A DNA stretch of 61,949 bases, from assembly GCA_945929875.1 (NCBI GenBank), contig CAMEOO010000003.1, positions 1-61,949 of the forward strand. The letters are read 5' to 3'. Made by a program: the position numbers and the translations under genes. The notes below the pieces were generated by a model. It did not search any database. It saw only the letters and a program-made list of their open reading frames with translations, and was not told the origin of the DNA. Positions 24,888 through 43,500 of this stretch are shown here, one piece after another. This stretch comes from an uncultured Bacillales bacterium (lineage in GTDB: Bacteria; Bacillota_I; Bacilli_A; RFN20; CAG-449). The first letter of the stretch is position 1; each line of letters opens with the position of its first letter.

Positions 24888-25021
24888 TAAAATACGCAAA
24901 ATTTTTACCGCAAAAATAATAGTTAACTATCAATTTGCGAATAATTTTTGCATAATACGAAAGAAAATATTGCGTTTTGCATAAACTATTATATAATGAT
25001 AATAGAAATGAGGAAAAATAT

Positions 25022-26308
25022 ATGATCATACAGAGTGTTTCAATTAATGGATATAAGAATTTATCCAAAGTAAAAATAAAATTTGATAAAATTACTGCTT
25101 TAGTTTCCTTAAATAACTTTGGAAAATCAAACGTTTTATCTGGAATTGATTTTGCTATTTCGTTTATTAAAGCATCTAGTGATGTGAAAAGGAACATGAT
25201 GTCAAATTTATCATGCGTACCATTAAAAAAAGCAAACTTTTTAAAGAATTTCAAATACAGTATGATTTTATCTACTTTAATTAATGAAAAGAAATATCTT
25301 ATTTCGTATTCTTTTGAATTTGAATGGCAAAAAGGTCAAGAGCATGATCCAAAAATTCTATCTGAATCTCTTAAAATGAAATTAGATGAAAAAGGGCAAA
25401 AATATACTCAATTAATTGATAGGAAAAATAATGCTTCTTATTACAAAAGCTCAGAAACTGGAAGATGTAGCAGTGAAATTAATATAGGATCTTGTGAACT
25501 AATAGTGAATAAGTTAAAAGCATATGATAATTTATTTTATAAGGATATTATTTCTGAAATAAATGAAATTAAAATCTACATAGAAAATAATCTTGAAGTA
25601 AGAGAAAATTTTTTACCTAATCCAATAATACGAAAAGATTTTGAAAACGAACTGATTAATGCAGATAATTTACCTAGAATTATATTTACTCTTAAAAATA
25701 AATATCCAGATAAATATAGCCTTTTAATTAATATTTTTACTCAGATATTCCCTGACATCAAACAGATAGAAGTAAAAGAAGTTAAATATAACAATGATAG
25801 CAATAATCAATTTGATGAAGATGCAATATATACTATTGCTAACACGATTTATGTGCTTTTTATATATGATGATAAATCAAGATTTCCACTCAGATTTGAT
25901 ATGCTTTCTGATGGAACAAAAAGAATATTTATGATTTTGACTAAAGTAATTCTTTCTAGTATTAGCAATATAGCTTTAATTGCAATAGAAGAACCTGAGA
26001 ATTCAATACATCCTAGTTTATTTAGAGCTTATTTAGAAATATTAAGTGACTTGTTATTTGATTGTAAAATAATAATTGCTACTCATTCTCCTTATGTTAT
26101 AAGTTATTTAAACCCTCTATGGATTCATGTTGGGATCGATAAAAATGATGGATTAGCTAGATTTTATCCTATAAATAAAGCAAAAGAAAAGCAATTAGAA
26201 AAAGATGCAGAGTTTTTTAAGATGAATACAGGCGATTATTTATTCTCTTTACTAGCGGATCCAAGTAGCGATATCTCATCTTTCTTGGAGTGTGATAGCG
26301 ATGAATAA
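25022..26308 (+). CDS. OLD/AAA_15-type ATPase (module 4)
   Basis: 'IQSVSINGYKNL', P-loop 'SLNNFGKSN' (first Gly replaced), 'IAIEEPENSIHP' (EEPE..HP is OLD-family-like), and 'IIATHSP'. A TATAAT lies at 24991-24996. Confidence 0.7.
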   Translation: MIIQSVSINGYKNLSKVKIKFDKITALVSLNNFGKSNVLSGIDFAISFIKASSDVKRNMMSNLSCVPLKKANFLKNFKYSMILSTLINEKKYLISYSFEFEWQKGQEHDPKILSESLKMKLDEKGQKYTQLIDRKNNASYYKSSETGRCSSEINIGSCELIVNKLKAYDNLFYKDIISEINEIKIYIENNLEVRENFLPNPIIRKDFENELINADNLPRIIFTLKNKYPDKYSLLINIFTQIFPDIKQIEVKEVKYNNDSNNQFDEDAIYTIANTIYVLFIYDDKSRFPLRFDMLSDGTKRIFMILTKVILSSISNIALIAIEEPENSIHPSLFRAYLEILSDLLFDCKIIIATHSPYVISYLNPLWIHVGIDKNDGLARFYPINKAKEKQLEKDAEFFKMNTGDYLFSLLADPSSDISSFLECDSDE

Positions 26309-26906
26309 ATGTATAGTTATAATTGCTGAAGGTGAAACCGAAGTAGAGTTTTACAAAAAAATGATCAGTTATTTTAGAAATAAAAACTCTATTGTTCGAT
26401 TTAATTCATGCATAGAGTATTTAAATGTTAATGGAATAGGCGGCTTTAAAAATAATGCATTGAGAAAATTTATAAAAGAAGTTGTCCCTAAATATGGTAA
26501 GAATTGTGAGTATATTGTTTTTTTGTGTAGTGATACTGATGTATTTGAGTTTTCTATAAGGCCTCCGATTAATTGGGAAGTAGTTATTAGTGAATTTAAA
26601 AAGAATGGCGCTAATGAAGTTTTTCAAATAGAGGCCGATAAATCTATAGAAGACTGGTTTTTAATAGATCTAGAAGGAATAATAAAGTATTTGAGGCTTA
26701 AAAAGAATACTAAACCTACAGGTAAAAATGGGTATGAAAAGCTTAAATCTCTATTTAAACTTGCAAATCGTATGTACTATAAAGGTGCAAAATGTGAGGG
26801 ATTAATTGATCATTTAGATATTGGTAAAATTTATGAAAAAAAGTTGAATAAGTTGAAACCTTTATTTGAAAAACTTACTAAAAAAGAATTACAGTCAATT
26901 TGTTAA
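26301..26906 (+). CDS. DUF4276-like (TOPRIM-type) partner (module 4)
   Basis: ATG overlaps the ATPase stop by 8 nt. Has 'CIVIIAEGETEVEFY', 'VFLCSDTDV' and 'SIEDWFL'. Confidence 0.55.
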   Translation: MNKCIVIIAEGETEVEFYKKMISYFRNKNSIVRFNSCIEYLNVNGIGGFKNNALRKFIKEVVPKYGKNCEYIVFLCSDTDVFEFSIRPPINWEVVISEFKKNGANEVFQIEADKSIEDWFLIDLEGIIKYLRLKKNTKPTGKNGYEKLKSLFKLANRMYYKGAKCEGLIDHLDIGKIYEKKLNKLKPLFEKLTKKELQSIC

Positions 26907-27206: not shown

Positions 27207-28115
27207 ATGAAATTAGTATTAAATAATAAAAGAATAAATTCAATTAAAATATTAGAAAAATTTAACATCGAAAAAATAAAAATCGGAATACCAGTTAAAA
27301 ATGATGAGGCTAGAAAAGTCTGTCTTACAAATGTTGGAGATGTGGTTTTGCCAGATGCAAAATTTGGCCCCTTAAGTAAGAAAAATGCAAATGGATATTC
27401 TTATGCGGATAAAACAAAGCAAAAAGAAATGCGTTATGTAAATACTATTCGCTTTCATCCATATGGAAATGATAATGCAGATGAAATATATAAGGATATT
27501 TATAGATTGTGTTATCCAAAAATTGAAGTTCCACCATATGAAATTTCACTACAATTAACTAGCAATAGTAGAAGTGAATTATTCATATATGCAGTTTTAA
27601 CTAAACAAATAAGAGATAATTTCATCAAAGAGGCTATTAACCTCCTTTTAGAAATATTTGGCATTTGTGTTATTACTGATGAAGATATTGATGTAAACTT
27701 TACAAACAAAACAAACTGGTGCAACTGGGTTATACTTCCACCAGGAGAAAAGCCTAGTGATTATTTGAAGAATTTTTATAATAACAATTCTAGTAAAAAG
27801 AATATGGATTTTGATCTAGAAAGACTCAAATATATCGAGAGCTTTAATTATATATCCGATAGTGTAGGAATAAATGGCTTTAGAGGATATACTGCCTTCA
27901 TATTTGAAAAATATTGTGTTTTTGAATGTGCAACTTACGGAAATGCTATTTATATAGTAGAAAGAGAAAATTGGGAAGAACTAAGTAAAAGAACAAAAAA
28001 AGAACTAATTGTAGAAGGAAAAGTAGTTGCAAAAATTGAACATAAAGAATTTTGGAAAGAAAGTCTAAAGAAAGAATTCAAAAAATTAGGAATTACTAGA
28101 AGAGTTGAAGTATAG
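27207..28115 (+). CDS. Hypothetical 302-aa protein, no family recognised
   Basis: RBS AAGGGAAGGA, long clean ORF, own terminator, no TM segment or signal peptide. Confidence 0.7.
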   Translation: MKLVLNNKRINSIKILEKFNIEKIKIGIPVKNDEARKVCLTNVGDVVLPDAKFGPLSKKNANGYSYADKTKQKEMRYVNTIRFHPYGNDNADEIYKDIYRLCYPKIEVPPYEISLQLTSNSRSELFIYAVLTKQIRDNFIKEAINLLLEIFGICVITDEDIDVNFTNKTNWCNWVILPPGEKPSDYLKNFYNNNSSKKNMDFDLERLKYIESFNYISDSVGINGFRGYTAFIFEKYCVFECATYGNAIYIVERENWEELSKRTKKELIVEGKVVAKIEHKEFWKESLKKEFKKLGITRRVEV

Positions 28116-28406: not shown

Positions 28407-28436
28407 TTGACATAATATTTAGGATTATTTTATAAT
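28407..28436 (+). promoter_or_regulatory. Sigma-A-type promoter TTGACA-18-TATAAT for the fibre/adhesin locus
   Basis: TTGACA at 28407-28412 and TATAAT at 28431-28436. Three more TTGACA hexamers lie at 28290, 28354 and 28364. Confidence 0.5.
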
Positions 28437-28556: not shown

Positions 28557-29597
28557 ATGAATGAAAGCAATGTAGAAGTTAGTAATAAACCAATATACCC
28601 TTTTATGAAAAAATCTAATTCTTCTAAAGGAAGTAAAGTGTCAACAAAAGCGAAATCTCGCGGTAAAGAAATTCGTGTTGATACCCACTACAAAGAGAAA
28701 GTAGAAAGAGAAAGAAAGTTAAAGAGATTACAAGAGGCTAGAAAAAAAAGAGAACAACAAAAACTTCTTGAACATGAAGAGTCATTAAAGACTTTCAAGA
28801 AAAAGGCAGTTAAGACTGCTTTAAAAAATGAAGAGCTAGCTCAATCATTAAAAAACAAAGAAGTTAAAGTTAAATCTAATGGCCAAAAGGAATCTCAAGA
28901 AAGATTAAAAAGAGCGACTAAAACTCCTTTCTCCTACTACTATAACGTTAGTAAAGATGTTAGTAATAACATAGGATATTGCAATATTTATCAATGTATG
29001 AACGATAAATTTGCGGGTAGGTTATTCCAACCTCAATACTTCGCTATCGCAGAACAATCGGAAAGAATCTTCGAAATCAATAAACTATTGATTATTCATT
29101 CTATCGGTATTGCATTGTTACATGAAGAAACTTCCTTCTTAGTGCAAGTCTCACCTAAATATTTAGAATCCGATGAGCGCTATAAGGAACTAGAAAGTTT
29201 ACTTGAAAATGCACCTACTAATCTAATTCTCTGTATGGATTCTAGACCATTAATCCTTACAGGAGATGAAGGAAGAAAAAGATTATTAGAGTTAATTGAA
29301 AAATATAAATTAAGTCTAATGCTTGATAATCCTGAAACTGAAAGACTATCTGTTCTATTTGACTATCCAATTAAATATATTCGATTAGATGGAAGGTACT
29401 ATGTAGATCGAAGTGAAAACAAAAAGCAATTCATTAAGATAATTAATGAGTATTGTAAAGGTTTAAAAATCGATCTAGTAGCAAAATACATCGACACTAA
29501 AGAAGATAAATCTTGGATGTTAGCAAATGGAGTCAGATATATTGAAGGGGCGAACGTTCAAACAAACAAAAGTAATGTAAATGCAGCATTGAAATAG
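28557..29597 (+). CDS. Cytoplasmic protein: Lys/Glu-rich N-terminal half + degenerate (catalytically dead) EAL-like domain
   Basis: Colinear with the EAL blocks: 'FQPQYFAIAEQSERIFEINKLL', 'LVQVSP', 'LILCMDS', 'LSLMLDNPETERLSVLFDYPIKYIRLDGRYY' (in place of DDFGTG...KiD) and 'LVAKYIDTKED...GVRYIEG' (in place of AEGVE...QG). Confidence 0.5.
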   Translation: MNESNVEVSNKPIYPFMKKSNSSKGSKVSTKAKSRGKEIRVDTHYKEKVERERKLKRLQEARKKREQQKLLEHEESLKTFKKKAVKTALKNEELAQSLKNKEVKVKSNGQKESQERLKRATKTPFSYYYNVSKDVSNNIGYCNIYQCMNDKFAGRLFQPQYFAIAEQSERIFEINKLLIIHSIGIALLHEETSFLVQVSPKYLESDERYKELESLLENAPTNLILCMDSRPLILTGDEGRKRLLELIEKYKLSLMLDNPETERLSVLFDYPIKYIRLDGRYYVDRSENKKQFIKIINEYCKGLKIDLVAKYIDTKEDKSWMLANGVRYIEGANVQTNKSNVNAALK

Positions 29598-29637: not shown

Positions 29638-30738
29638 ATGGCAAGTGCAAAAGGAATTAATAAAATACTTGATTCTGAATTAAAAGAAAAATTAAAAGAA
29701 GATGATCGTAATACTAACAATAAAGCTAAAAGAAGACGTATGACTGTAGTTATTATGATCATTATCTTGCTCTTCTCAATTATAGCTTCCATTTATTACC
29801 TTATCGATTCTATGGTTGTAGAAAACTCATATAAGGTCTATGTAAATGGAACAAATAACGCTAAAGGTTTGAGATTATCTTACGATTCTGATTTTGGACA
29901 AGGATATAAAGATATCACCGGTAAAGGAATTAGACTAGAAGATAATTCCAATAGTGGATTAGGATTTGGAGCTTCTAAAATTGATTATGGTGATCAATCT
30001 TATTCCGCGATGGATTATTTGATGTCTGTGTGTTCAAATCAAGAAGGCACCATTAAAACTAACGTTATTGATAAAGGTCAAGCTGGTGAAGCAAACGGCG
30101 ATCAATTCTTAGTTAGTAAATTCTATTTAAAGAATACATTAGAAGTTGATGAATTAAATGGTGTTACTGAAGAAAGCGTTACAGTAAACTACGCTATTCA
30201 ATTAACAATTGAAAATAGCACAAAAAACGCTTTAAGCGCATGTAGATTTGCCATTATCGAAGTACTAGATGAAGAGAATATCTATAAGGTTGTAGAAGAT
30301 GAACAAAATAGAGAAACCATTATTGATAACAATGCATATAACATGTCAGTTATCGCTCAACCTAAAATCAAGCATCTAGAAAATGGAGATATGCAAATCA
30401 ATAAAGGTGATGAACCTGATTCTGAAGAATATGTAGGCTCATTAATTAATGGTCAATATACAGATGATGAAGAAGCATTACTAGTTAAAAATCCAAAGAA
30501 TAAAGATGAAGACTGGAAATGTAAAAACCTACATTATGAAGAAGAAAAAAGACAATGGTATTACAATACTGTTGAACACGAGACAGAAGAAAGTAAACAA
30601 GTATTTTCTATTAAGCCACAAGAGCAAAAAGCTTATGTTGTAGCTACTTGGTATGAAGCCTCTGATCCAGATCACACAGACGCGATCAAAGGAGGGTATG
30701 TCTCATTTAGTTTCACTTTCTATGCAGTGGAAAAATAA
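29638..30738 (+). CDS. N-terminally membrane-anchored extracellular protein, TasA/camelysin-like features (TapA-analogue candidate)
   Basis: One TM ('VVIMIIILLFSIIASIYYLI'). 'FLVSKFYLKNTLEV' and C-terminal 'GGYVSFSFTFYAVEK' resemble TasA 'FQFENNGS' and 'KLQFSFEATQ'. Confidence 0.35.
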   Translation: MASAKGINKILDSELKEKLKEDDRNTNNKAKRRRMTVVIMIIILLFSIIASIYYLIDSMVVENSYKVYVNGTNNAKGLRLSYDSDFGQGYKDITGKGIRLEDNSNSGLGFGASKIDYGDQSYSAMDYLMSVCSNQEGTIKTNVIDKGQAGEANGDQFLVSKFYLKNTLEVDELNGVTEESVTVNYAIQLTIENSTKNALSACRFAIIEVLDEENIYKVVEDEQNRETIIDNNAYNMSVIAQPKIKHLENGDMQINKGDEPDSEEYVGSLINGQYTDDEEALLVKNPKNKDEDWKCKNLHYEEEKRQWYYNTVEHETEESKQVFSIKPQEQKAYVVATWYEASDPDHTDAIKGGYVSFSFTFYAVEK

Positions 30739-31035: not shown

Positions 31036-31713
31036 ATGAAAAAAAGATTATTTATTACATCTGCTCTAATGACAGCTGTAATGGCTGCTTCATTAGCAAC
31101 AGGAACTTATGCATGGTATGTAACTGGTGCTGGCACAGGAGTATCACTTGTAGAAGCAACATCTAAAGTTAATACTGCTGCTAATAGTTATTCAGCTGGT
31201 GCTGTTACATTTAATGCTAATATATCTTCTACAGGAGCTCCAAAGTTAACTGATAATAAAGGAAAAACCTATTATTATTTAGGTTCTGTTGGAACAAATA
31301 ATAAAGCAGAAGATACAGGTGCTCAACTTACTGATAAGTATGCTACAGGTACAGTTTCTATTACAGGAGTTCTAACCAATGGAGCGGGTGCTTCTGCAAC
31401 TTATAAGGAAGTAATGACTTCATTAATTGGTAAAAAATATAAGATTACAGTTACATCTAGTGATGCAAATGTAAAATTCTTTGATAGTGTGCCAACTGCA
31501 GAAGGGTTCAATTGGGCAGGCGCTAAAACTTGGTCTAGCCAAGTTATTACGATTGCTACTGAACATGCTAACCAAACTGATAATACCGCAGGAAATGTTT
31601 TAGGTAATACTAATTTCTATTGGGGATATAGTGGTGAAGATAAATTGCAGGAACAAGCTAAGGATATTACTTTAACTGCTACTATTACAGAAGTAACAGA
31701 ATCTCAAGGATAA
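31036..31713 (+). CDS. Small secreted Ala/Thr/Gly-rich protein with a SipW-cognate-type signal; candidate major fibre subunit
   Basis: 'MKKRLFITSALMTAVMAASLATGTYAWYVTG'. Has a 297-bp leader of its own, a strong RBS and a terminator immediately downstream. Confidence 0.5.
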   Translation: MKKRLFITSALMTAVMAASLATGTYAWYVTGAGTGVSLVEATSKVNTAANSYSAGAVTFNANISSTGAPKLTDNKGKTYYYLGSVGTNNKAEDTGAQLTDKYATGTVSITGVLTNGAGASATYKEVMTSLIGKKYKITVTSSDANVKFFDSVPTAEGFNWAGAKTWSSQVITIATEHANQTDNTAGNVLGNTNFYWGYSGEDKLQEQAKDITLTATITEVTESQG

Positions 31714-31729: not shown

Positions 31730-31760
31730 AGAGGAGACTACGCCTCTCCTCTTTACTTTT
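31730..31760 (+). terminator. Hairpin terminator after the 225-aa gene (interrupted T-run, probably leaky)
   Basis: AGAGGAGA-ctacgcc-TCTCCTCT then TTACTTTTT. Confidence 0.55.
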
Positions 31761-31849: not shown

Positions 31850-33052
31850 ATGAGTAAAGAAAAGATTAAAAAAGAGAAAAAAGAAAAAAGCAAAGTAAGA
31901 ATTTGGATAGAAAATATCTTAGAAGTTCTTATAGTTGTTGCTTGTTTAGCTTTCTCAATAATTATGATAGCTAGTCCAGGAGGAGTAAAAGAAGATTACT
32001 CTAAGATTAATGTTAGCTATATGCCTGTTTTATCTAATTCTATGTCTGGCACATTTGAAGAAGGAGATTTAATTTTTGGTAAGAAGATTAATAGAGATGA
32101 TGATGGAAACTGTGAAATATTAGATATTGGTACAGTAGCGATATTTGTTGTTAATGATGTTTCTCAATCTGAGTATCTTTTTATTAATACTCACAGAATT
32201 GTCGGATATTATTATGAATATAAAGATTCTCATGATGGGAAATATTATGCTGGTTATGACAAAATGTTTAATGCAGAAGGTGTTACAAATGCAGAAACTG
32301 CAAAATCGTTTGCTGATTCTCAAGGCTGGGAAGATTTTAAAATTATAAGATATGTTACTTCTGGAGATAATAAATCTATTTATTATAAAAATGGAGATGT
32401 CAATGGTGAATTGATAGATTCTAGTAATATTAATGTAGTAGATAGTTATAGACCAGAGGTTAATGATGTCATAGGCACTTGGACTGGTAAAAAGCTAAGT
32501 GGTGTAGGTGGAGTTATTACATGGATTCAAAAACCATTGAACTTCTTCTTAGTTATTATGATTCCATTAATACTATTATTCTTATATAACATTTGGACAG
32601 TTATTAAATATATATTAGAAGTTAAGACTGAAAAAGCAAGAAAATTAGCTTTAGAAGAAGCTCAAGCTAATGCTATTGATGAAGAGGAAATTAAACGTAA
32701 AGCAGTAGAAGAATATATGAAGAAGATGGGTATTGATCCTTCTAGTTTACCTACTGAAAATAAAGAAAGTGATGTAAAAGAAGAAAGTAATAAAGAAGAA
32801 GTTACTTCTTTAGAAGTAAAAGAAGAAGAAACTCCTAGTAAAGAAGAAAATGAAGAAGTTGTAGTTGAAGAAATAAAAGAAGAAGAAAAAGTAGAAGAAC
32901 CTGTAGTAAAGAAAGCTCCTACAAAGAAGAAAACTACTACTAGCAGTTCTACTAAAAAGACTACTACAACTACAAAAAAGTCAACTGGAACTAAAAAGAC
33001 TACTAGTTCTAGTAAGAAAACTACAAGTAAAAAAAGTAGTGAAGTAAAATAA
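31850..33052 (+). CDS. sipW: SipW-type (ER/archaeal-type) signal peptidase I with an insert and a ~150-aa Lys/Glu/Thr-rich tail
   Basis: 'VLSNSMSGTFEEGDLIFG' Ser box, 'THRIVGYY' His box, 'TSGDN', and a second TM ('FFLVIMIPLILLFLY'). 400 aa versus about 190 aa for B. subtilis SipW. Confidence 0.8.
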   Translation: MSKEKIKKEKKEKSKVRIWIENILEVLIVVACLAFSIIMIASPGGVKEDYSKINVSYMPVLSNSMSGTFEEGDLIFGKKINRDDDGNCEILDIGTVAIFVVNDVSQSEYLFINTHRIVGYYYEYKDSHDGKYYAGYDKMFNAEGVTNAETAKSFADSQGWEDFKIIRYVTSGDNKSIYYKNGDVNGELIDSSNINVVDSYRPEVNDVIGTWTGKKLSGVGGVITWIQKPLNFFLVIMIPLILLFLYNIWTVIKYILEVKTEKARKLALEEAQANAIDEEEIKRKAVEEYMKKMGIDPSSLPTENKESDVKEESNKEEVTSLEVKEEETPSKEENEEVVVEEIKEEEKVEEPVVKKAPTKKKTTTSSSTKKTTTTTKKSTGTKKTTSSSKKTTSKKSSEVK

Positions 33053-33110: not shown

Positions 33111-34703
33111 ATGTTTTGGCAATTTTTAGGTGAGTTTATCGCGGTATTTGCCCTAGGGTTTTTAGGGATATTTATCAGTTGGTCTGGTAAAGCCTATGGA
33201 GGACTTATTGGTGGAATTATTCAAATGTTTAATGTTCCTCAATATATCGCTGTTGTAAACAAGTATAAAGAGTATTTTGGTCCAGGAGAATGGATTGGTC
33301 TTGCGGCTATAATTTTAGTGTTCCTTGCGGTATTAGTTGGATTATTATGGGTTATCATCCATTATTCAATTAGACTATATAAACGTTTATTTGTTAATAA
33401 GCAAAACGATGATGATTTAGTTGATGAAGTTAATAGATTAAGAAGAACTGTTATTAGAAATAATAAAGAGAGAAATAAATTAATTGATCTTTGTTTAAAA
33501 AGTGGGGCTTCTTCTAGTAGTGTTTCTTCAGTGTTAAATGATGAAGAAGAAACTTCAGAAAAGAAAGAAGAAAGTCAAGAGCAAGAAAAAGAAAATGTTA
33601 ATAATGGAGAATCTAGATTCTTTAAGCTTACTGAAGTAGATGCTTTATATAGAGATAATCCACCTCATTTTACTTATGATAATGATATAACTTTAGAAGA
33701 GTTATGTGATAGATTTAGAAACTGGGCGTGTTCAGAGATGCATTTATACTATGAACCTAGAGTAATTAGATTGTTCTTCGCGGCTTTTGCTACCACTAGA
33801 ATTATCATTTTACAAGGTATATCTGGTACAGGTAAAACTTCCCTTCCTTACGCGATTGGTCAATGGTTAGATAATCCATCAACGATTGCTTCTGTTCAAC
33901 CTTCTTGGAGAGATAGAACTGAAATCTTTGGTTATTTTAATGAATTTACTAAGAGATTTAATGAAACTCAAATTTTAAAGAAAATGTATGAAGCTAGGTA
34001 TAATGAACAAATATATTTGACAGTTATCGATGAAGCTAACATCGCTCGTGTTGAATATTATTTCGCAGAATTATTATCTATTCTAGAAATGCCTTCTAGA
34101 GATAACTGGATCGTCGATATTTGTCCTTCTGGTTGGGAAAATGACCCTAAATTTATTGAAAAAGGTAGATTTAAATTACCTGAAAATATGTGGTTCATCT
34201 GTACAATCAATAACGATGACTCTACATTTGCTATTTCAGATAAGGTTTACGATCGTGCTATTCCAATTAACATCAATAGTAAAGGTATTCCTTTTGATGT
34301 ACCTGAAGAAGAAAGAAACAAAGCTCATGAATGCGTTTCATATAAGCATCTAGAAGCAATGTTTAAAGAAGCTCAAGAAAAATATAAAGTCAGTGAAGAA
34401 AATATTAAGAAATTTAACGATATGGATGACTATGTCATCGAACACTTCCGTTTAGCATTTGGTAATCGTATCGTTAAACAATTAAAGGAATTTGTTCCAG
34501 TTTACGTTGCTTGCGGTGGAACTGAAATTGATGGTTTAGACTATGTTCTATGTAATAAGATTTTAAGAAAATTTGAATCGTTAAACTTGGCTTACATTCG
34601 TGATGAAGTCGATGGATACATTCAATATTTAAATGATCACTTCGGCGAAGAAAATATGAAAGAATCTAAAGAATATCTAGAAAGATTAAAGAAATTATTC
34701 TAA
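33111..34703 (+). CDS. Membrane-anchored McrB-family AAA+ NTPase
   Basis: Two to three N-terminal TM helices, then 'ILQGISGTGKTS', 'VQPSWRDRTEIFGYF', 'LTVIDEANIARVEYYFAELLSILE' and 'FICTINNDDS..ISDKVYDRA', colinear with the E. coli McrB motifs. Confidence 0.75.
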   Translation: MFWQFLGEFIAVFALGFLGIFISWSGKAYGGLIGGIIQMFNVPQYIAVVNKYKEYFGPGEWIGLAAIILVFLAVLVGLLWVIIHYSIRLYKRLFVNKQNDDDLVDEVNRLRRTVIRNNKERNKLIDLCLKSGASSSSVSSVLNDEEETSEKKEESQEQEKENVNNGESRFFKLTEVDALYRDNPPHFTYDNDITLEELCDRFRNWACSEMHLYYEPRVIRLFFAAFATTRIIILQGISGTGKTSLPYAIGQWLDNPSTIASVQPSWRDRTEIFGYFNEFTKRFNETQILKKMYEARYNEQIYLTVIDEANIARVEYYFAELLSILEMPSRDNWIVDICPSGWENDPKFIEKGRFKLPENMWFICTINNDDSTFAISDKVYDRAIPININSKGIPFDVPEEERNKAHECVSYKHLEAMFKEAQEKYKVSEENIKKFNDMDDYVIEHFRLAFGNRIVKQLKEFVPVYVACGGTEIDGLDYVLCNKILRKFESLNLAYIRDEVDGYIQYLNDHFGEENMKESKEYLERLKKLF

Positions 34704-34731
34704 TTATTAATTGTTGAAAGAAGGATTTTTG

Positions 34732-36375
34732 ATGATACAAGATGGTCAATATCTATTAAATCAAATTAAAGAAATATTTGATGGTGAATCAGCTTATAAG
34801 AGTTATCAAAGGGCTATTGTCGATGGCACTTCTTCTTTTAAGATTACTCAAAAATACTTAAGTAAAGAATTTGATCACGATTGGATTGATATCATTGAAG
34901 ATTGTTTACCTTCTCTTGATACGATCGTTAGAAATCCAAGAAGATTTATTACTGTTGAAGAAGATATCATCGATATTTCTTTAGCAAAACAAATCTCGGT
35001 TGAATCGGTTAAACATCTTGCTCAACATACTCAATTTATTTCTGATGTTGATCAAAAAAAGGGAACAGTTACTCCTAGTAAGATCTTAAATACTTCTAAG
35101 GAAGAAAGTTTTGAAGTTTATGAAAATAGATTTATTTATACGTTAATTAAGAAATTATATGAGTTTGTTCAAAAAAGATTTGAATTGATTAAAAAGAGTT
35201 TTATTAACAATAAAAATGAGATTTCAGTTTTAGTAAATACTAATTATAAATATCAAGGATCTAATGTTAAAGTTAAGTTTGAAGCTACAACAGAAATTCC
35301 TTTTGATGAAAATAAAGTAAGTCAATCTGAAGATTATTTAACAATTGAAAGAGTTAAAAAAATCAATCAGATTATCGAAGGTTTTTTATCTTCTCCTTTT
35401 GCTAGAGAGATGAGAAACTCGGCTCCTGTACGTCCTCCAATTATGCGTACAAACGTTATAAAAAAGGAGCCAAACTTTAAAAAAGCCTTAATTTTATGGC
35501 AATTTATCGAATCTTATGAAAAGACTGGTTTTGAAGCTAAAGAAGTTAACGAATCAAATACTATGTCTGAAGATTTAAATGAGCAATATAACGAATTATT
35601 ATATGTTAACGATATGATTTTAAGTGGATTATCGCGTTTTCAAAGTGGGGAAGTCTCTATTGATGAGTTATCTGAAAAGTTAACTGATGAAGTTAATAAT
35701 GGTGAAGGTAGTTCTTCTGAAGAAGAGGGCTCTAATGATGAATTCCCAATGATTAAACTAGAATTAAGAGAAGTAAGAAAAGTCTATTATCGTTCTAAAA
35801 ACGATAAATACTTTAATTCTTTAGAATATCGTGAAATCACTAGTTGCTTAGATCGAGTCATCACTCAACAAAAGATTAATGTTGAAAAGAAAGATGAAGA
35901 AGAAAGAAGAAAGCTTATTGAAAAGCAAAAGAAAGAGGAAAAGAGAGTCAGAGAGAAAAATAAAGCTGATCGTAAAAGAGAAGAACTTCGCCGTAAGAAA
36001 GAAGAAGAACTTGCTGTTAGCTTAATTAAGAAAGAAGAACAAGAAAAGATTAGACAAGAAAAAATAAAGGCTCTTGAACAAGAAAAGATCATTAAAGAAA
36101 GAAAGAAACAGATGATGGAAAAACTTCTAGAAGAGCAACATCTAGAAGAAACTATTGAGGAATATCGTAAGTCACTTCTTGAAAAGATGAATAAAGAATT
36201 AGACAAAGAAAGAAATCAAGAAGATAATCTTGTGCAAATAGATTTATTAAATCAAAAGATTGACGATCAAAATGAAATTGAAGAATTTAAAAATCAACAA
36301 GTTGAATTGTTCAAGAAAAAATTAGAAGAATCTTTGGCTTCATTTAATGACGATTATGAAAAGACAAGCGCGTAA
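34732..36375 (+). CDS. McrC-position partner: globular N-terminal ~380 aa + ~170-aa Lys/Glu coiled coil; no nuclease motif seen
   Basis: RBS GAAAGAAGGA before ATG 34732, 28 nt after the ATPase stop. Has 'EVYENRFIYTLIKKL'. The C-terminal 'KKDEEERRKLIEKQKKEEKRVREKNK...' is heptad-like. Confidence 0.4.
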   Translation: MIQDGQYLLNQIKEIFDGESAYKSYQRAIVDGTSSFKITQKYLSKEFDHDWIDIIEDCLPSLDTIVRNPRRFITVEEDIIDISLAKQISVESVKHLAQHTQFISDVDQKKGTVTPSKILNTSKEESFEVYENRFIYTLIKKLYEFVQKRFELIKKSFINNKNEISVLVNTNYKYQGSNVKVKFEATTEIPFDENKVSQSEDYLTIERVKKINQIIEGFLSSPFAREMRNSAPVRPPIMRTNVIKKEPNFKKALILWQFIESYEKTGFEAKEVNESNTMSEDLNEQYNELLYVNDMILSGLSRFQSGEVSIDELSEKLTDEVNNGEGSSSEEEGSNDEFPMIKLELREVRKVYYRSKNDKYFNSLEYREITSCLDRVITQQKINVEKKDEEERRKLIEKQKKEEKRVREKNKADRKREELRRKKEEELAVSLIKKEEQEKIRQEKIKALEQEKIIKERKKQMMEKLLEEQHLEETIEEYRKSLLEKMNKELDKERNQEDNLVQIDLLNQKIDDQNEIEEFKNQQVELFKKKLEESLASFNDDYEKTSA

Positions 36376-37081
36376 GAAAGAAAATAAACCAAAATCAAAA
36401 GTAAGAAAAGTTTTAGATATAGTTGGATATATTATTTTTGGATTAGTTTTTGTTCTTGTGGTTGTAGTATTTGCTCAAAATGTATCGGGTGGGCAACCTA
36501 ACTTTTTTGGCTATTGCTATTACTATATTCAAACTGGTTCGATGGATGGTGACAAAAAAGATAGTTTCCCAGCAAAAACTGTGATTATTTCTAAACTTAT
36601 CGATGAGGAAGATTGTTATAAATTAAAAACGGGAGATATCATTACTTTTACTCCTACCGATCCTAATTTACCTACATATATCACTACCAAAACTCATCGT
36701 ATTGTCTCTATTGATTATGAAAATGAAACAATAGTCACAAGAGGAGATGCAAATGAGGCTAATGATAGTCCTATTCCATTTATAAATGTTCATTCTAAGT
36801 TTGTAAAAAAGAGTCCATTAATGACTTTCTTCTATAAATTAATTTCTTCTTATTTAGGTTTCTTAGTATTAATTTTTATTCCATTATTAGTATTAATTAT
36901 CATGCAAATTTACTCGACAATTCTTGCTGCAAGAAAAAGCAAAGTGTCAAATGAGATTAATCAAATGGAAGAAAACAATTTAAATTTAGAAAAAAGAAAG
37001 AAGGAACTTGAAGAGCAAGCGATTCAAGAGTACTTAGATTCTTTAAAAAAGATAGACAAAAAAGATGATAAAGTCGATTAG
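36347..37081 (+). CDS. sipW: Second SipW-type signal peptidase I
   Basis: TM, then 'YIQTGSMDG', 'GDIITF', 'KTHRIV' and 'TRGDANEANDSPI', plus a C-terminal TM. Overlaps the upstream gene by 29 nt (the alternative ATG 36356 overlaps by 20 nt). Confidence 0.8.
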   Translation: MTIMKRQARKKENKPKSKVRKVLDIVGYIIFGLVFVLVVVVFAQNVSGGQPNFFGYCYYYIQTGSMDGDKKDSFPAKTVIISKLIDEEDCYKLKTGDIITFTPTDPNLPTYITTKTHRIVSIDYENETIVTRGDANEANDSPIPFINVHSKFVKKSPLMTFFYKLISSYLGFLVLIFIPLLVLIIMQIYSTILAARKSKVSNEINQMEENNLNLEKRKKELEEQAIQEYLDSLKKIDKKDDKVD

Positions 37082-37262: not shown

Positions 37263-39482
37263 ATGAATAAAATATCAAAGATTAAATTTTTATTAACCCC
37301 TATATTAACTGCAATGTTAGCCTTTATCATGGTTGTAACTTCTTTTTCATGGTATCAAATTAAATCTAGTGAAATCAAAGTTGAACCTCAAAGTGTCAGC
37401 GTAACTACTAAGGCTCCTGAAGGAGACAATGCGGAAATTTTTCCTATTAACGATGTTTATGAATTTAATAAAGTCACAAGTAATTATATCGTTGCAAATA
37501 CTGGTATCATCAATGGGTATTTAGGTCAAACTGGTTTAGAAACTGATTCAGCAGATGATCGAGCGTACATCATTTTCTACAAGGTAGAAGTATCGTCTTC
37601 TGATCCAGATAGATTCTCAACTTTAGATTATGCTTATGTTGATTCGCTAGAAATTCTTGATTCTAATGGTAACTTAATGGTTTCAAAAGATTCTGAAACT
37701 GATTCAACTGATAATTATGGCTTAGATGAATTTAGAATCATCTTCTTAGAAAAAACAGATATTTCATCTAATAGCCAATATTATTTCAAGAAGACTAACT
37801 TAATGACTCCAGATGTTACTGATAGTACAAATAATACGATTACTTTCTTTATTGGAGTTCAATTCCACGATAATTCAACTACTAGATTCCCTTATTCAGA
37901 TACAAAATATATCGGTTCTAAGTTTAAGTTAAATATCAAGTTTGATAGTTCGGTTAATAATAGTTTCTATAAAATAGCTTTGTTTAGAAAAAATGCTGAA
38001 ACAACAAAATATGAAGAAATTGATCTATATGATTATTCTGAAAAGAGTACTGCAACTGATTCAACTGGCGCTTATACCCAATACAAATTTAAAGATACTA
38101 ATAAAGACCATCCATTTGATATTAAACCAGGTGATCGAATCTACGGATACAATAAACTAACTCGTACCTATTATGATTACTTTGAGAACTGGACTAACAT
38201 CTTAGATTTAAATAACGACAGTACTTATGATACATATCAAATTCCAGAAGTGCCTTCTACATATAGTGAAGACATCTTGAATGATTACGAGTTTAATATT
38301 AAAGTTTACGCAAATACAGTAAAAATATATAACGTATGTCCATTCACTCAATTCTTTATCAAAGGTGGATATAATTCTTGGTCAAACGTTCAATTGGATG
38401 AACTCACCGATCCAACAAATAAAGCGAGGGCTATTGATTTATATAAACGTATATATGCTCAAGATGATTCACTAATTTCAGAAAAGAGTTATTTAAAACC
38501 ATTGACGATAAATCCATTTGTCGTTGGTTCCTCTAAAGCGGGAAAGGCCGCTACATGGACGCAAAAAAATAAAGATGAGTCAGTAGAAAAGCATGAGGCA
38601 CTTAATGATAATGGTGCACTAAGTTATTTCGATTTAGTCAATAAAAATTATCCAATCTACACAACTACCTTCTCTACTTCTACAATTACTGAATTCTGTG
38701 TCTTTGATTCTAATGAGCAATATTACAAAAATAGTTTCAATGATAGTCAAGGTAACTATAAGTTACTTAATGGTGAATGGCGAATTTATCTATTAGTTAT
38801 TCCAGAAAAAGAAATTAATGATTCAACAAAAGTCACCATAACAAAAACTACTACCTTAGGTAATAGTGAACCAGTAGTTACTACCTACGAAAAGAATATG
38901 GCAAAATATCGTAGTGTTGTCATTTATGAGAAGATTGGTGAAGTTGAAGCAAAAAAAATTGATTTCTACATCAAAGGACATATGAACTCTTGGAGTGCAA
39001 CAGAGAAATATAAATTGACGTATGTAGAAGAGAATGTCAGCGTTCCTTACTATTGGTGTAAAGTCTACTTCGATGCGACATTTTCAAATTCTGATGGTAC
39101 TTATTCAAATTACGAATTTAAATTCTCAGACTTAACTTGGGGTGTCAGCTGGTCAACTGATGGATTTGCAATCAACCATGTTGATTCAAATGGAAAATCA
39201 ACAGTACCGAAAAAGGTAACTGATCAACTTAGCGCTCTAGGACTAAGTGACATCTTAACTACAAGAGATTATAATTCAACAGGAGTTTATACACCTAATA
39301 ACTTACGTTATTACTTCGGACTAAATGACGATAACTCTAATATGGCTAACATTAAGATTGTTAGATCTGGAACTTATACCTTCTACATGTTCTACGATGT
39401 TTACATTACCGATACTGGAGATATCGTTCAAGATGCATATGTCTTCTTAGTGGACTATCAAGAAGGAAACTTTACTTCATAA
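37263..39482 (+). CDS. 739-aa secreted protein with a SipW-cognate-type N-terminus and two 'xGxxNSW' carbohydrate-binding-like modules
   Basis: 'LTAMLAFIMVVTSFSWYQIK', 'FFIKGGYNSWSNV' and 'FYIKGHMNSWSAT'. Confidence 0.5.
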   Translation: MNKISKIKFLLTPILTAMLAFIMVVTSFSWYQIKSSEIKVEPQSVSVTTKAPEGDNAEIFPINDVYEFNKVTSNYIVANTGIINGYLGQTGLETDSADDRAYIIFYKVEVSSSDPDRFSTLDYAYVDSLEILDSNGNLMVSKDSETDSTDNYGLDEFRIIFLEKTDISSNSQYYFKKTNLMTPDVTDSTNNTITFFIGVQFHDNSTTRFPYSDTKYIGSKFKLNIKFDSSVNNSFYKIALFRKNAETTKYEEIDLYDYSEKSTATDSTGAYTQYKFKDTNKDHPFDIKPGDRIYGYNKLTRTYYDYFENWTNILDLNNDSTYDTYQIPEVPSTYSEDILNDYEFNIKVYANTVKIYNVCPFTQFFIKGGYNSWSNVQLDELTDPTNKARAIDLYKRIYAQDDSLISEKSYLKPLTINPFVVGSSKAGKAATWTQKNKDESVEKHEALNDNGALSYFDLVNKNYPIYTTTFSTSTITEFCVFDSNEQYYKNSFNDSQGNYKLLNGEWRIYLLVIPEKEINDSTKVTITKTTTLGNSEPVVTTYEKNMAKYRSVVIYEKIGEVEAKKIDFYIKGHMNSWSATEKYKLTYVEENVSVPYYWCKVYFDATFSNSDGTYSNYEFKFSDLTWGVSWSTDGFAINHVDSNGKSTVPKKVTDQLSALGLSDILTTRDYNSTGVYTPNNLRYYFGLNDDNSNMANIKIVRSGTYTFYMFYDVYITDTGDIVQDAYVFLVDYQEGNFTS

Positions 39483-39501: not shown

Positions 39502-40521
39502 ATGAAAAAAACATTAACCATTGTTACAACTACATTAGCTCTAGTGCTCACCTTAATCGTGGGCTCTTTTGCGTGGTATAAGATGTATAACAATGGTCAA
39601 CTATCTGTCGACATTGGTACTCAAGTTAAAGATGGTATTACTTTAACTATTACTCCTTTCTCAAAAATTGATGGTAGTTTAGCTCCTTCTAAAATGAAAA
39701 AAGGAGTCATCAATAATTACGAAGACTACTACATTACCGGAAATCCTAATTTAGATGATGTTAAAGATAATGAAAATTTAATTAAAATTCCAACTAGTGA
39801 AGAAGTTTTACCTCTTGTAAAAACAATTACTGATCCTCTTGGTAATCCTCTTTACTATCAATACGATTTAAATGAGGATAAAACATTAAAAGCTGGAAGT
39901 GAATATTTAGAAACTCCAGCAACAATTCTTTATCGTCAATTTGAGTTGAGATTAGGTAGTATTGAGTCTACTACAAAGATTGCTTCATTCGATATTAAAA
40001 TTGAATACTATGATATCTTTAATAAACTAGCTGCCTTTAAACAATCAGATGCAATTTCCTTTAGTTTCTACATTCTAGAAGGTCATTCCATTCCTCAAGA
40101 AGGATTAACTAGTTTATCAACTATTTCAAGTTTCTCTTCTGGAGGAAATAAAGACAATAGTTCAAAGAAAACTTTATCTGAATATCTATACACTTATAAT
40201 CAAAGCGCTAGCGAAAAAAACAAATATAAATTATCGACATTTGTTAACGAAGGTGGCCAAGTATTTAATTATTCTAGAGGGGAAGAATGGAATACTTCGA
40301 ATTTCTACAATTATCGAGTTAATCCATTTATTGTTAATACTGATGAAGGATTTACCATGAACTTTGACTTAGTTGGATTAGATATGAATATCAGTTATTA
40401 CGTATTAATTGAATTATTCTATAATTTACCTGATGAACTTCTAGATGGAGCATTAAGCTTAACTGAAAGATTAAATCTTGAAATCTCATACGCAATCACT
40501 TCTCAATTTGATGAGAAATAG
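39502..40521 (+). CDS. 339-aa secreted TasA-like protein with a SipW-cognate-type N-terminus
   Basis: 'LALVLTLIVGSFAWYKMY', 'YRQFELRLGSIES', and C-terminal 'LNLEISYAITSQ'. RBS AAAGGAGAAG. Confidence 0.5.
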   Translation: MKKTLTIVTTTLALVLTLIVGSFAWYKMYNNGQLSVDIGTQVKDGITLTITPFSKIDGSLAPSKMKKGVINNYEDYYITGNPNLDDVKDNENLIKIPTSEEVLPLVKTITDPLGNPLYYQYDLNEDKTLKAGSEYLETPATILYRQFELRLGSIESTTKIASFDIKIEYYDIFNKLAAFKQSDAISFSFYILEGHSIPQEGLTSLSTISSFSSGGNKDNSSKKTLSEYLYTYNQSASEKNKYKLSTFVNEGGQVFNYSRGEEWNTSNFYNYRVNPFIVNTDEGFTMNFDLVGLDMNISYYVLIELFYNLPDELLDGALSLTERLNLEISYAITSQFDEK

Positions 40522-40537: not shown

Positions 40538-43500
40538 ATGAAACAAAAAATGTCAAAAAAGAATATTATGACTTTATTGATGGCGATGGTATTTAGCTTT
40601 ACCACCATTGTCGGAGCAATCGTCGTTTCCTTTTCTATTTGGTCTGGAAATAAACAAAGTGTTCCAGTAGTAAGTGAAGACTTCAACGCTTCTGAAGATG
40701 ACTTTACTTTCTACGCCGCTATAGAAAATATCGCAAATGATGGGGGATATGACTACTATCCTCTTGATAGTGTTCCTGAAGATTTATCTTCTTTAATCAA
40801 AGGTCTTGCAGTTGTTAGATATGAAGCATTTAACAAAACCGCATATATCCCTTCTTATCCAGAAGTAACAATTCTTGGAAAAAAGTATAATGTCGACGGG
40901 GCACATAATTATCCAGTAATTCACATTTTAAAAGGGTATTATTCAACTAGTGATTATTTAGGAAGTAATGGTCTAGCAAGAAATGATTCCATTGAAACTT
41001 TAATTATTCCTAGTACCGTAAATTATATTTACGAAGGTGCTTTTGCTCAAATGAAAAATTTGAAAGAAGTTACAATTCTTGGTACAGTTAATTATAATTA
41101 TGTATTAAATATTAGTAACTATATTTCAAAAACTTCTTTAAATATTTGGGATTCTAATCAAACTGTTGGAAAAGATGACCCAGTTGATATATTGCAGTTA
41201 AATGATGAAAAAACAGCTTACGTATCAACAGTTAACTTAAATACTTACAATATTACAACAGGTAGCGATGGAACTACTGGTATTATCAATTACACTTCTA
41301 AAACTAGAGGTCGACAATTTGAAAGTGGAGTTAATTATACTACTCCTATATATGGCGCTAGTGAAGGACAAAGTAGTTTAACTTACGATGATCACCTATA
41401 TATTGAAAAGGGAGCTTTCACAAATGATAATGATGCTTCGATAGCTATTGACATCAGCGCAAATGTTGACTCTTACGTCTTTTCTACCAATCACAATGTC
41501 AAATTTATCTGGCAAGATCCAAATCATTGTGCGAATACTTATTCTTATTCTTATGAAACGAATAAGGGAGATAATCAAATATTTTTATTCGACCAGTTTA
41601 ATGGTCTTTTACGCTATAATGGGGAAAAGAATTTATACTATACAACTTTCATTCCTAAAGTCGCTATGAGTAGTATTGAATTTAGCGATACTTCAACTAA
41701 AGAATCTATTGGGACATTTACCTATGCATTCCAACCTAATGTTAAATACTACTTGGAATTAACTAAGCAAGGATCTAAATTTGCGTTAAATGTTAAATCA
41801 ATTAGCTATGTTTTAAGATATAAAGAAACAGATAGTTCATTAAACTGGACAGAAAAGAACTTAGTTTTAAATACTAGTGAGACTAGCGTTGAAGAATATT
41901 CTCCAAGTGAAATTTTAACTTTGTCTAATTATCCAATTCTTTTTGTTCATGAAAAAATAAATGATGACTTAAACACTGACTCATATATTAACAAGTTTGA
42001 ACTTGATATTACTAATGCAAGTTATTCTAGCGATTGTACTAGTTTTGATATTAGATTTAGCCCATCGCACGTTTATCAATCTATTCACTATTATAGCCAT
42101 GTTGAAAACGAGGTAGAATCGTTAAGATCTATCACTACAAAGCAAAGGTTAAATGCTGAAAAGGTATACTATCTAAATGAAGTAAAGAAGATGGTAGGTG
42201 ATACAACAAAAGGCAATGAACAAGTTATCATCACTTTCCCTAACAATAGCAATTTACCAAGCTTATTCGTTTTAGCTTACAGCGTATATAATACTCAAGA
42301 AGCTTATGTTTATTATGATGGTAAGAGTCCAGCGACAAATGAGAAATCATTCAATGAAATGACTTTAAATACCTCAACAAATGAATTTGAATATACATTT
42401 GATTTAACTTATGGATCTCCAATGTATATTTCATTTATTCCAGGTACATATGCTCAAATTACTGGTTATCCTGATTATGTAGTTAATGGTACTACTTCTA
42501 CTGCATTAGAAACTACGTTACTAGATTCATCGACAAACGAACCTTCATCTAGTAAAAAAAGAATTTATTTTGATATGAAGTATGGAACTTCAATGGATTC
42601 TACTAATGATGGTAGTTATAATGAAACTACAAAATTTACTTATAATTATAAGTATTATCTATGGGGATGGGTCGGAGATTCCGAGGGTGCTTGGTACACA
42701 TTTAACTTCTTTGATCAAAATTGTACCTTATGGTATACTGATATCCCTAGTGACTTAACCAAAGGAATTATCGTAAGAAGAAAAACTAGTTATACGGATT
42801 CTAATGGAAATACTATTACTCCTACTACTGGTGCATGGAAATCTAATGAAGGAGTTGTTAATCGTACTGGTAATATCGATCTTACTTTAGGAAACTATAT
42901 TCAATTTAATAGATGGGGCAGCGAACAAATTGATAGTATTGACTCAATAATTGTTGATGTTATCGATACTAATAATTCTAGAAGAATCTACTTTGATAAT
43001 TCTTTAGCAAAAGATAATAACTCATTTGATTCATCTACAAACACTTATAATAATAGTATTATTTATTATGCATATATTTTTGGAAGCAATGAATATAAGG
43101 CTTGGTTTAAATTCTATCAATATGATACTACTTGTACTCTTTGGTATGCTGATATACCTGTTACTGATCCAAGTGGATCTACAATTGTTAAAGGAATTAT
43201 TACTAGACAAAGAGCAGGAACTGCTGGAACTTTTGATAATGTTAATGATTTCTATAATAAAACTGAAGATATTACAAATTTAAATAGTAATAATTTTTAT
43301 ACTTTTAAAAGTTGGGTACAAAATACTAATAAGTTTGAATGTTCTGCTTCAAATGATAATACAAAAGGTATTGTTAACGAGAACTTGTCCCATGCTCAAA
43401 ATAATACTTATTTAATATTTGAAAATTATGGTACTTCTGGAAATACAGTTTACGTCCCATTAGATGAAAATATGGGATATGATGGAAAAAGAGTATTTGC

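Follow-up and report, generated by a model that had tools for sequence, protein, structure and literature searches.

What would a relative of the McrBC restriction machinery do between two signal peptidase genes? The question is raised by a 61,949-nt stretch of DNA from an uncultured Bacillales bacterium (contig CAMEOO010000003.1 of assembly GCA_945929875.1; this whole stretch is called the window below), in which the genes for a membrane-anchored McrB-like ATPase and for a partner in the position of McrC are nested between two genes for SipW-type peptidases. A first-pass annotation, made from the letters alone, had left two readings: a repurposed McrBC-like machine working at the membrane in a fibre locus, or an atypical restriction or defence pair lodged inside the operon. 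Synteny, the strand of the putative substrates and co-inheritance of the parts, documented below, lead us to favour the former. We propose that the pair is of the type named CoCoPALM, a nuclease-free McrBC derivative built into a SipW-dependent locus for fibre or adhesin biogenesis. We put the probability of this reading, and of a role of the pair in fibre or adhesin biogenesis rather than in defence or something else, at about 60%. The four central genes are as follows (aa, amino acids; TM, transmembrane segment).

31850 to 33052, + strand: SipW paralogue 1 (SipW1), 400 aa, with two TMs, a large insertion and a long charged cytoplasmic tail containing AVEEYM.
33111 to 34703, + strand: putative CoCoPALM McrB-like GTPase, 530 aa, with two TMs, an AAA+ core and an NxD-type signature.
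34732 to 36375, + strand: putative CoCoPALM McrC-like partner, 547 aa, with a DUF2357 core (residues ~1-300), a second block (~338-380) and a charged tail.
36347 to 37081, + strand: SipW paralogue 2 (SipW2), 244 aa, with two TMs and a charged cytoplasmic tail containing AIQEYL.

These genes are tightly packed: 58 nt separate SipW1 from the ATPase gene and 28 nt the ATPase gene from that of the partner, whose 3′ end is overlapped by SipW2 over 29 nt. This is the nested arrangement that had been described, and the coordinates and peptides quoted with it are all present in the sequence. A pattern search of the + strand from SipW1 to SipW2 gave no convincing terminator-like site, the sole match being a weak 7-bp stem at 33151-33167, within the ATPase open reading frame (ORF). 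The partner ORF had been listed from a TTG at 34711. Because the alignment of 22 homologs begins at the ATG at 34732, 34732-36375 (547 aa) is more likely to be the gene.

The ATPase has hydrophobic stretches at residues 5-23 and 65-83 (Kyte-Doolittle 19-mer means 2.17 and 3.19), which confirm as two TMs the membrane anchor that had been said to replace the DNA-reading N-terminal domain of McrB, and all 24 aligned family members have a hydrophobic N-terminus. In the AlphaFold model (mean predicted local distance difference test score, pLDDT, 73; predicted template modelling score, pTM, 0.61) both hydrophobic stretches are helical, and residues 58-94 and 100-130 form helices, the second of which is a candidate coiled coil. 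It is followed by a disordered acidic linker (131-170), an alpha/beta NTPase domain and a conserved helical C-terminal domain. The motifs GISGTGKTS (Walker A), VIDEAN (Walker B) and TINNDDS are found in the sequence, as are the quoted motifs VQPSWRDRTEIFGYF and VIDEANIARVEYYFAELLSILE. The only significant matches among PDB sequences were E. coli McrB structures (6hz4, 6ut6 and 7vsr; E ~2e-6, residues 219-399), and comparison by hhalign of a profile of the 24 family members with E. coli McrB gave a probability of 97% (E 9.4e-11), in agreement with the McrB-family core recognised in the first-pass annotation. The NCBIfam McrB model PRK11331 also matches the window protein (E 5.4e-7), and AAA_5 is matched by 22/24 members. 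In an ungapped HMMER alignment, N367 falls on McrB N333 and R382 on McrB R348, which we take to be the arginine finger of McrB.

The signature of the window protein, N367-N368-D369-D370, can be read either as NxxD or as NxD followed by D. Over 150 representatives of the wider family it takes the form T[AI]N-x-D-[DE]-S, with the variants NNDD, NKDD, NTDD, NQDE and NRDE. In the NxD branch of McrB, as defined by Bell et al. in 2024 (PMC11090510, section 7), NxD is usually followed by E or by a second D. Since the family signature fits this pattern, the ATPase is placed in the NxD branch and not with the canonical NxxD proteins, to which it had at first been likened. Judged by its sequence, it is thus a McrB-family AAA+ protein of the NxD branch.

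A protein search with the ATPase yielded at least 8000 scored candidates, of which the best 120 are all 500-650 aa long and 58-99% identical, except for one duplicated outlier. In this protein (P0015, 646 aa), ~120 residues of the AAA+/C-terminal region are internally duplicated, as is visible in the alignment, either through an assembly artefact or through a real tandem duplication. TM segments precede Walker A in 90 of the 150 wider-family representatives. This wider family includes forms of 600-680 aa with 4-7 predicted TM helices and forms of 745-790 aa with highly charged, TM-free N-termini. One polytopic ATPase (P0273, L088 2723-4693) is followed by a gene for a 478-aa protein, and its 6.4-kb contig carries no SipW.

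The partner matches Pfam DUF2357 with 33.8 bits (gathering score 23.3), and the domain is recovered in 21/21 trimmed cores of its family (best E 2.7e-15). DUF2357 is treated by Bell et al. as the N-terminal domain of McrC (PMC11090510). No nuclease Pfam family was matched in the partner or in its 21-22 homologs, and the earlier description of a nuclease-free protein in the McrC position is upheld. In the alignment, a highly conserved core of ~300 aa is followed first by a second, shorter block that is also conserved and then by a charged tail, the length of which varies widely. In the AlphaFold model, residues 363-546 form one helix of 184 residues, with 53% E/K/R/D overall and 63% charged residues in the first 60. 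The long charged tail announced in the first-pass annotation is therefore present; given its high charge, part of it may be an ER/K-type single helix and not the classical coiled coil that had been assumed. The most conserved loops of the partner (73-88 and 117-124) have pLDDT values below 50, which would fit segments that become ordered only within a complex.

To which known system does such a pair belong? Canonical McrBC of E. coli and T. gammatolerans has in common with it the AAA+ core with Walker A, Walker B, sensor-1 Asn and the Arg aligned to McrB R348, and a directly downstream partner with a McrC-type N-terminal domain. It differs in several respects: its DNA-binding N-terminal domain is replaced here, in residues 1-170, by TMs, the coiled-coil helix and the acidic linker; its PD-(D/E)xK nuclease is absent, a charged helix following the partner core; the signature is NxxD there and NxD here; and its locus is one of restriction, where ours is a secretion/fibre operon. 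Membership in canonical McrBC thus fails on the nuclease and the DNA-binding domain. The CoCoNuT systems (CnuB/CnuC) resemble the pair in their NxD-branch GTPase, their coiled coils and McrC homologs that often lack an active nuclease. They are always accompanied by HEPN or other nucleases, RNA being their predicted target (PMC11090510), whereas the GTPase here is membrane-anchored, and neither the genes from 27.2 to 40.5 kb nor the giant protein encoded downstream matched a nuclease family. For lack of an associated nuclease, a CoCoNuT assignment fails as well.

The third candidate is CoCoPALM, named in 2024 by Bell et al. and described as having an FtsB-like fusion of TM and coiled coil, an association with signal peptidases and coiled coils on both proteins (PMC11090510). 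The account given there runs to three sentences, its analysis being left to a future paper; we found no follow-up publication, and the supplements of PMC11090510 hold no CoCoPALM examples. The defining features are seen in the window and in the 80 related loci described below: an NxD-branch McrB-like GTPase with an N-terminal fusion of TM and coiled coil, a DUF2357 McrC homolog with a coiled coil, and a conserved link to genes of the signal peptidase family. Nothing that contradicts membership was found; the published FtsB homology was not recovered by hmmscan. We are highly confident that the window pair is a CoCoPALM and not a restriction module. It follows that the first-pass statement that no role was known for a McrBC-like motor in such loci has to be amended, as the association already has a name. 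New beyond PMC11090510 are a signal motif in the substrates and another motif in the SipW tails, the degenerate EAL protein, the anchored paralogue, the giant adhesins and the quantitative synteny.

The FtsB homology that Bell et al. report for the N-terminal fusion (PMC11090510) raises a first alternative, in which the FtsB-like region and the charged helices would serve as a spacer or would direct the SipW/fibre machinery to the septum or the poles, with GTP hydrolysis controlling assembly and disassembly of the scaffold. The partner tail lends itself to such a role, as its length varies greatly among homologs (whole proteins of 540-890 aa), which is expected of a spacer or ruler, and its highly charged, ER/K-like first ~60 residues fit a rigid single helix. 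Yet FtsB/DivIC Pfam models matched 0/24 ATPase members (hmmscan, E <= 1); the reported homology probably came from more sensitive profile-profile methods. No division genes are conserved in the neighbourhood, and the strict conservation of the full catalytic set of the ATPase would be left unexplained. We regard this positioning or scaffold role as very improbable.

If the pair serves a fibre locus, it should be found with such loci elsewhere. We assembled 80 loci, the best of at least 590 carriers in a scan of species-representative genomes; they come from Christensenellales, Oscillospirales (Acutalibacteraceae, Ruminococcus, Oscillospiraceae) and gut Bacilli or ‘Tenericutes’ metagenome-assembled genomes (MAGs). 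The partner lies directly 3′ of the ATPase gene in 72/72 loci, with a median gap of 39 nt. A SipW-like gene is found within 1.5 kb upstream of the ATPase in 53 of 65 loci, and adjoins the pair on one side or the other in 44/46. The distance matrices of ATPase and partner are strongly correlated (Mantel r = 0.91, p = 0.0005, 51 loci), and those of ATPase and upstream SipW less so (r = 0.53, p = 0.0005, same loci). These correlations owe part of their strength to the common species phylogeny, yet they show that the parts of the module are not swapped independently. Mean pairwise identity across orders is 70% for the ATPase core, 40% for the partner core and 35% for SipW. In other genomes the module is flanked by ordinary metabolic or housekeeping genes.

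Together with one or two peptidases of the SipW type and several signal-bearing proteins (see below), the pair thus forms a conserved, co-inherited module present in hundreds of gut Bacillota species. The gene-neighbourhood comparison suggested in the first-pass annotation came out in favour of the first reading, homologous pairs co-occurring with SipW, signal-bearing proteins and giant proteins in related loci; sequence and profile searches also group the ATPase with McrB, and none of the homologous partners was found to contain a nuclease. Because of the synteny, the missing nuclease and the conservation, we reject the insertion of an ordinary restriction module.

Variations in the arrangement were also seen. 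In five Christensenellaceae loci (L009, L011, L013, L026 and L038) the order is ATPase-SipW-partner-SipW, a peptidase gene being interleaved with the McrBC-like pair. Two module-bearing loci (L016 and L047) are labelled as Bacteroidaceae or Bacteroidales MAGs, most likely through binning contamination rather than transfer.

Of the two peptidases, SipW2 passes the TIGR02228 model (56.2 bits, cut-off 51.85; NCBIfam SipW E 2.4e-21) and has S65-M, THRI at 116 and GDAN at 133. The scores of SipW1 are below cut-off because of its large insertion (SipW E 2.3e-9, TIGR02228 E 5.9e-5); S64-M, THRI at 114 and GDNK at 172 are nevertheless found, with TMs at 23-41 and 234-252. As far as can be told from the motifs kept, namely the Ser (S-M), the His (THRI) and GD(N/A), both enzymes are catalytically intact.

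The cytoplasmic C-terminal tails of these peptidases carry a recurrent motif (EEIKRRAIEEYLAKQ) with the consensus EEIK[RK][RK]AIEEYLA[KQ]Q. A strict pattern of it occurs in 59/112 SipW-like ORFs against 10/616 other ORFs, and its density is 2.47 per 1000 aa in the former and 0.03 in the latter, a ~80-fold enrichment (loci L007-L086). Thirteen proteins carry it in duplicate. In the window, the copies are AVEEYM at residue 285 of SipW1 and AIQEYL at residue 225 of SipW2. We know of no earlier description of this motif, which is the best candidate for a docking site of the cytoplasmic McrBC-like complex on the peptidases.

A similar sequence, ETIEEYRKSL, is seen in the tail of the partner itself (residues ~477-490, window 36160-36200), with V(D/E)EYRK or IEEYKK aligned to it in close relatives. 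The resemblance could be due to chance or to homotypic helix pairing.

What would the peptidases cleave? Signals of known SipW substrates include GTWA/AFND in TasA of B. subtilis and GTFAYFSD in CalY of B. cereus (in signals, a slash marks cleavage here and below). The 80 loci contain 641 ORFs of 100 aa or more outside the core genes, of which 137 have an N-terminal anchor followed by the motif [STAGV][FYL][ASG]W[FYIMLV], compared with 1/641 in reversed-sequence controls. All but four of the 137 (133) lie on the strand of the ATPase. At least one such ORF is present in 61 loci and at least two in 40. The consensus, T-T-A-T-[FY]-A-W-F-[ST], is TasA/camelysin-like (TTAT[FY]A/WF[ST]). Cleavage would be predicted, by analogy with these proteins, after the small residue (…T-F-A/W-F-S…), exposing a conserved aromatic N-terminus. 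In the window the following features belong here.

31036 to 31713, + strand: pilin-like protein, 225 aa, with a signal anchor and the motif GTYA/WY.
31730 to 31752, + strand: terminator-like hairpin directly 3′ of the 225-aa gene (8-bp stem with 4 GC pairs, T-rich tail; a pattern match only).
37263 to 39482, + strand: secreted protein, 739 aa, with the SipW-type signal TSFS/WY and a homolog in L084.
39502 to 40521, + strand: secreted protein, 339 aa, with the SipW-type signal GSFA/WY and a homolog in L084.
40538 to 59365, + strand: giant surface protein, about 6275-6295 aa (~6275 from the likely ATG), with the variant signal VSFS/IWSG.

The 225-aa protein is a candidate major fibre subunit. 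It has no Pfam, NCBIfam or PDB match, and its 44 detectable homologs are of low identity, indicating that it evolves fast, as expected of a surface protein. The 739-aa protein, for which no Pfam match was found, is a candidate minor or accessory subunit, and the 339-aa protein a candidate minor subunit. The giant protein is a candidate tip adhesin or cargo. Pfam models matched in it are Flg_new, as repeats, GLUG and, weakly and below threshold, the starch-binding CBM26; none matched its first 3800 aa. Its homolog in L084 has the signal STFA/YWS. Signal-bearing proteins of more than 1000 aa are also encoded in L009, L027, L041 and L058 (1200-2400 aa).

Upstream of the pilin-like gene, three further features precede the module.

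28407 to 28436, + strand: promoter-like site TTGACA-18-TATAAT, upstream of the EAL gene, with 12/12 matches to the sigma-70 consensus.
28557 to 29597, + strand: degenerate EAL-domain protein, 346 aa (Pfam EAL, E 8.2e-14).
29638 to 30738, + strand: single-pass membrane protein, 366 aa, with a basic cytoplasmic N-terminus, a TM at 38-56 and an extracellular domain.

The first is a candidate start for transcription of the cluster; overall, the region has no more promoter-like sites than expected from shuffled sequence. The EAL protein of the window lacks the ExLxR, DDFGTG and EGVE motifs, and DDFGTG or EGVE was found in 0/45 EAL ORFs of the related loci, so that these domains are degenerate. The protein is a candidate sensor or receptor of cyclic di-GMP (c-di-GMP), or a scaffold, rather than an active phosphodiesterase. 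Using an iterated profile, an EAL protein was found upstream in 36 of the 52 loci whose upstream DNA extends over 6 kb or more, and also in L001-L006; a first-pass phmmer search with the window protein had under-detected these neighbours (13/45). Rfam revealed no c-di-GMP riboswitch or other RNA element in the locus.

A member of the 366-aa family is present in 49/52 loci. The cleavable motif occurs in only 1/27 orthologs, and an iterated profile unites the family with motif-bearing pilin-like ORFs (114 of 205 matches), although this homology is possibly inflated by the common TM segment. The 366-aa protein may thus be an uncleaved, membrane-anchored paralogue of the pilin-like proteins and, by analogy with TapA, is a candidate base or nucleator of the fibre.

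The resulting picture can be compared with the SipW-dependent operons tapA-sipW-tasA of B. subtilis, CalY of B. cereus and sipW-bsaA of C. perfringens. These too have a dedicated SipW-type peptidase (the archaeal or endoplasmic reticulum type) beside its substrates, substrates whose N-terminal signal ends in a T-[FYW]-A-x-F-like motif, and an anchored accessory protein, to which the 366-aa protein would correspond. They differ in having no NTPase; conversely, two long-tailed SipW paralogues and giant adhesins are peculiar to our locus, whose substrates show no detectable similarity to TasA/Peptidase_M73. SipW cuts TasA just before residue 28, and the donor strand would then open the mature protein. 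That strand, by which the fibre is polymerised, consists of residues 28-38 (PMC9674648).

We propose the following scheme. The ATPase would form a membrane-tethered hexamer on the cytoplasmic face, and the DUF2357 domain of the partner would insert into the ring and, like McrC in the case of McrB, stimulate its hydrolysis of GTP. A physical link between ring and peptidases would be made by the charged helices together with the tail motif of SipW, and GTP hydrolysis would drive or gate two steps, the cleavage of precursors anchored in the membrane and the polymerisation of the products into a fibre. The subunits would presumably polymerise by donor-strand exchange from the newly exposed W-F-[ST] N-terminus, a step suggested by the conservation of W-F-[ST] after the predicted cleavage site and by the analogy with TasA residues 28-38. 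The fibre would carry the minor subunits and the giant adhesin, and the degenerate EAL protein would provide a regulatory input, possibly c-di-GMP. The specific mechanism by which motor and SipW are coupled in this scheme is tentative and, in our estimate, less likely than not.

If the scheme is extended, likenesses with type IV pili and archaella (PilB-PilC-PilD) appear: a cytoplasmic hexameric NTPase, a membrane platform, a dedicated (pre)pilin peptidase and several co-encoded pilin-like proteins with a common N-terminal signal would all have counterparts. The parts themselves are different, PilB being a secretion ATPase and not a McrB-type AAA+ protein, and PilD an aspartic peptidase where SipW is a Ser/His enzyme; cleavage precedes the hydrophobic segment there and would follow it here. 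It is possible, if doubtful, that CoCoPALM constitutes an unrecognised class of NTP-powered fibre-assembly machines in monoderms, with a McrB-derived ring, a McrC-derived shaft and SipW docked through its AIEEYLA tails. With the same reserve, a DNA-restriction motor might have been converted into the motor of a surface organelle, in functional parallel to PilB/PilC/PilD and from unrelated parts.

Several observations weigh against a fibre-biogenesis machine. To our knowledge, TasA fibres of B. subtilis need no NTPase, so that it is not obvious why a motor should be required. For the pilin-like proteins, sequence similarity to TasA, camelysin or any solved structure could not be detected: the family profile gave no PDB match at E <= 10, Peptidase_M73 was matched by 2/26 members (E 0.14) and TIGR04088 by 1/26 (E 1e-3). 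PDB, Pfam and NCBIfam profile searches therefore do not support assigning them to the TasA/camelysin family, and the assumption of a TasA-like fold and of assembly by donor strands has the signal motif as its only basis. For the partner, whose AlphaFold model (pTM 0.39) is dominated by the long helix, Foldseek gave no significant PDB match (best E 0.48); hhalign of the family profile with E. coli McrC indicated no relationship (0.6% probability), and the profile of the trimmed core matched no PDB sequence. Its kinship with McrC accordingly rests on Pfam DUF2357 and on the equation of this domain with the McrC N-terminus in the literature. To these come the unreproduced FtsB homology described above, the generic neighbours of the ATPase fold and the proximity of defence genes, the last two of which bear on alternatives of their own.

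In a Foldseek search with the full-length ATPase model, RavA, MCM and BrxL scored as well as or better than McrB, and Thermococcus gammatolerans McrB came only at rank 6 (E 1e-3). Such generic AAA+ neighbours argue neither for nor against the McrB assignment, as the fold search does not discriminate between clades. The presence of the MoxR ATPase RavA among the best structural neighbours (E 1.2e-4) recalls that MoxR-type AAA+ proteins mature specific clients. Ring and partner might then be a chaperone or quality-control machine, which regulates or remodels SipW or clears the membrane of cleaved anchors and stalled giant precursors. The very large proteins exported from the window and from other loci, the signal anchors that many single-pass precursors would leave in the membrane, and the SipW tail motif, which points to the peptidase itself as docking partner, would all suit such a machine. 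Its sequence and signature motifs nevertheless put the ATPase in McrB and not in MoxR, and a VWA partner is missing, the partner being a DUF2357 protein. We consider this chaperone role unlikely. It has the same parts as the fibre-biogenesis machine that we favour and differs only in the target of the GTPase cycle; the present data do not separate the two.

The last alternative is suggested by the region directly upstream of the locus, where a defence island extends from 18799 to 26906 (18.8-27 kb):

18799 to 20683: AbiLi-like AAA_21 ATPase and RloB-like protein.
21012 to 22869: PDC-M12 A and B (E 1e-113 and 1e-45).
23457 to 24689: second AbiLi-like ATPase (E 4.5e-80).
24977 to 26906: HEC-01 A- and B-like genes.

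The pair could accordingly be a membrane-tethered defence or abortive-infection module that senses phages at the envelope, such as those whose receptor is the fibre or the giant adhesin, and acts through a non-nuclease effector such as a shutdown of secretion or of fibre display. Besides the island, the parent family is defensive (McrBC, CoCoNuT; PMC11090510), the AAA+ core of the ATPase matches the PADLOC candidate-defence model PDC-M26A (E 5.6e-36), and more distant relatives of the ATPase have other N-termini and occur without SipW. However, the PDC-M26A match is limited to the AAA+ core (residues 209-333 against 312-437 of a 724-position profile), so that membership in PDC-M26 is not sustained; the partner has no PADLOC match, and neither the pair nor the operon contains a nuclease or another recognisable effector. 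The 70% identity of the ATPase core across orders is unusually high for a defence gene, the pair is tied to SipW and its substrates in the loci counted above, and elsewhere its flanks are housekeeping genes. Together with the fast evolution of the putative subunit and with the ATPase search, in which at least 8000 candidates were scored and the 120 best were all of 500-650 aa, this conservation and these flanks are not defence-like. A defence function of the pair is in our view distinctly unlikely, and a nuclease-free machine for fibre or adhesin biogenesis is retained as the preferred explanation. Between the island and the EAL gene, a 302-aa protein (27207-28115) has no Pfam match and a weak PADLOC match to the ZorC ‘EH signature’ (E 8e-4).

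Should the preferred explanation hold, an immune motor (McrBC) has been recruited to build an organelle of the cell surface. Until now, the pathway to TasA-type fibres has been considered independent of an energy source; many gut Clostridia and Bacilli would then possess an NTPase-driven version of it. The carriers (Christensenellales, Oscillospirales, RF39-like Bacilli) are abundant, largely uncultured gut commensals, whose adhesion apparatus would include adhesins of more than 6000 aa with putative carbohydrate-binding modules. That the idea is already in the literature lowers the surprise, but the analysis adds specific, testable features: the motifs of the substrate signals and of the SipW tails, together with the degenerate EAL protein and the anchored paralogue, are experimental handles on a system that has so far been only a name in one paper.

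Other genes of the window bear on the host and, through it, on what the adhesin may bind. The regions 14245-18584 and 59454-60458 encode a pullulanase-type enzyme (PUD, CBM48, alpha-amylase), a CBM26 protein and a choloylglycine (bile-salt) hydrolase (E 3e-105), which point to a starch-using gut organism. In view of these starch genes and of the CBM26 match in the giant protein, the fibre or adhesin may bind starch. At the far upstream side, the only Rfam match in the window is a 6S RNA (RF00013) at 4605-4767 on the + strand (48.1 bits, gathering score 46.4). It overlaps the start of the ORF listed at 4726-6747 from a TTG, whose true start therefore probably lies further downstream.

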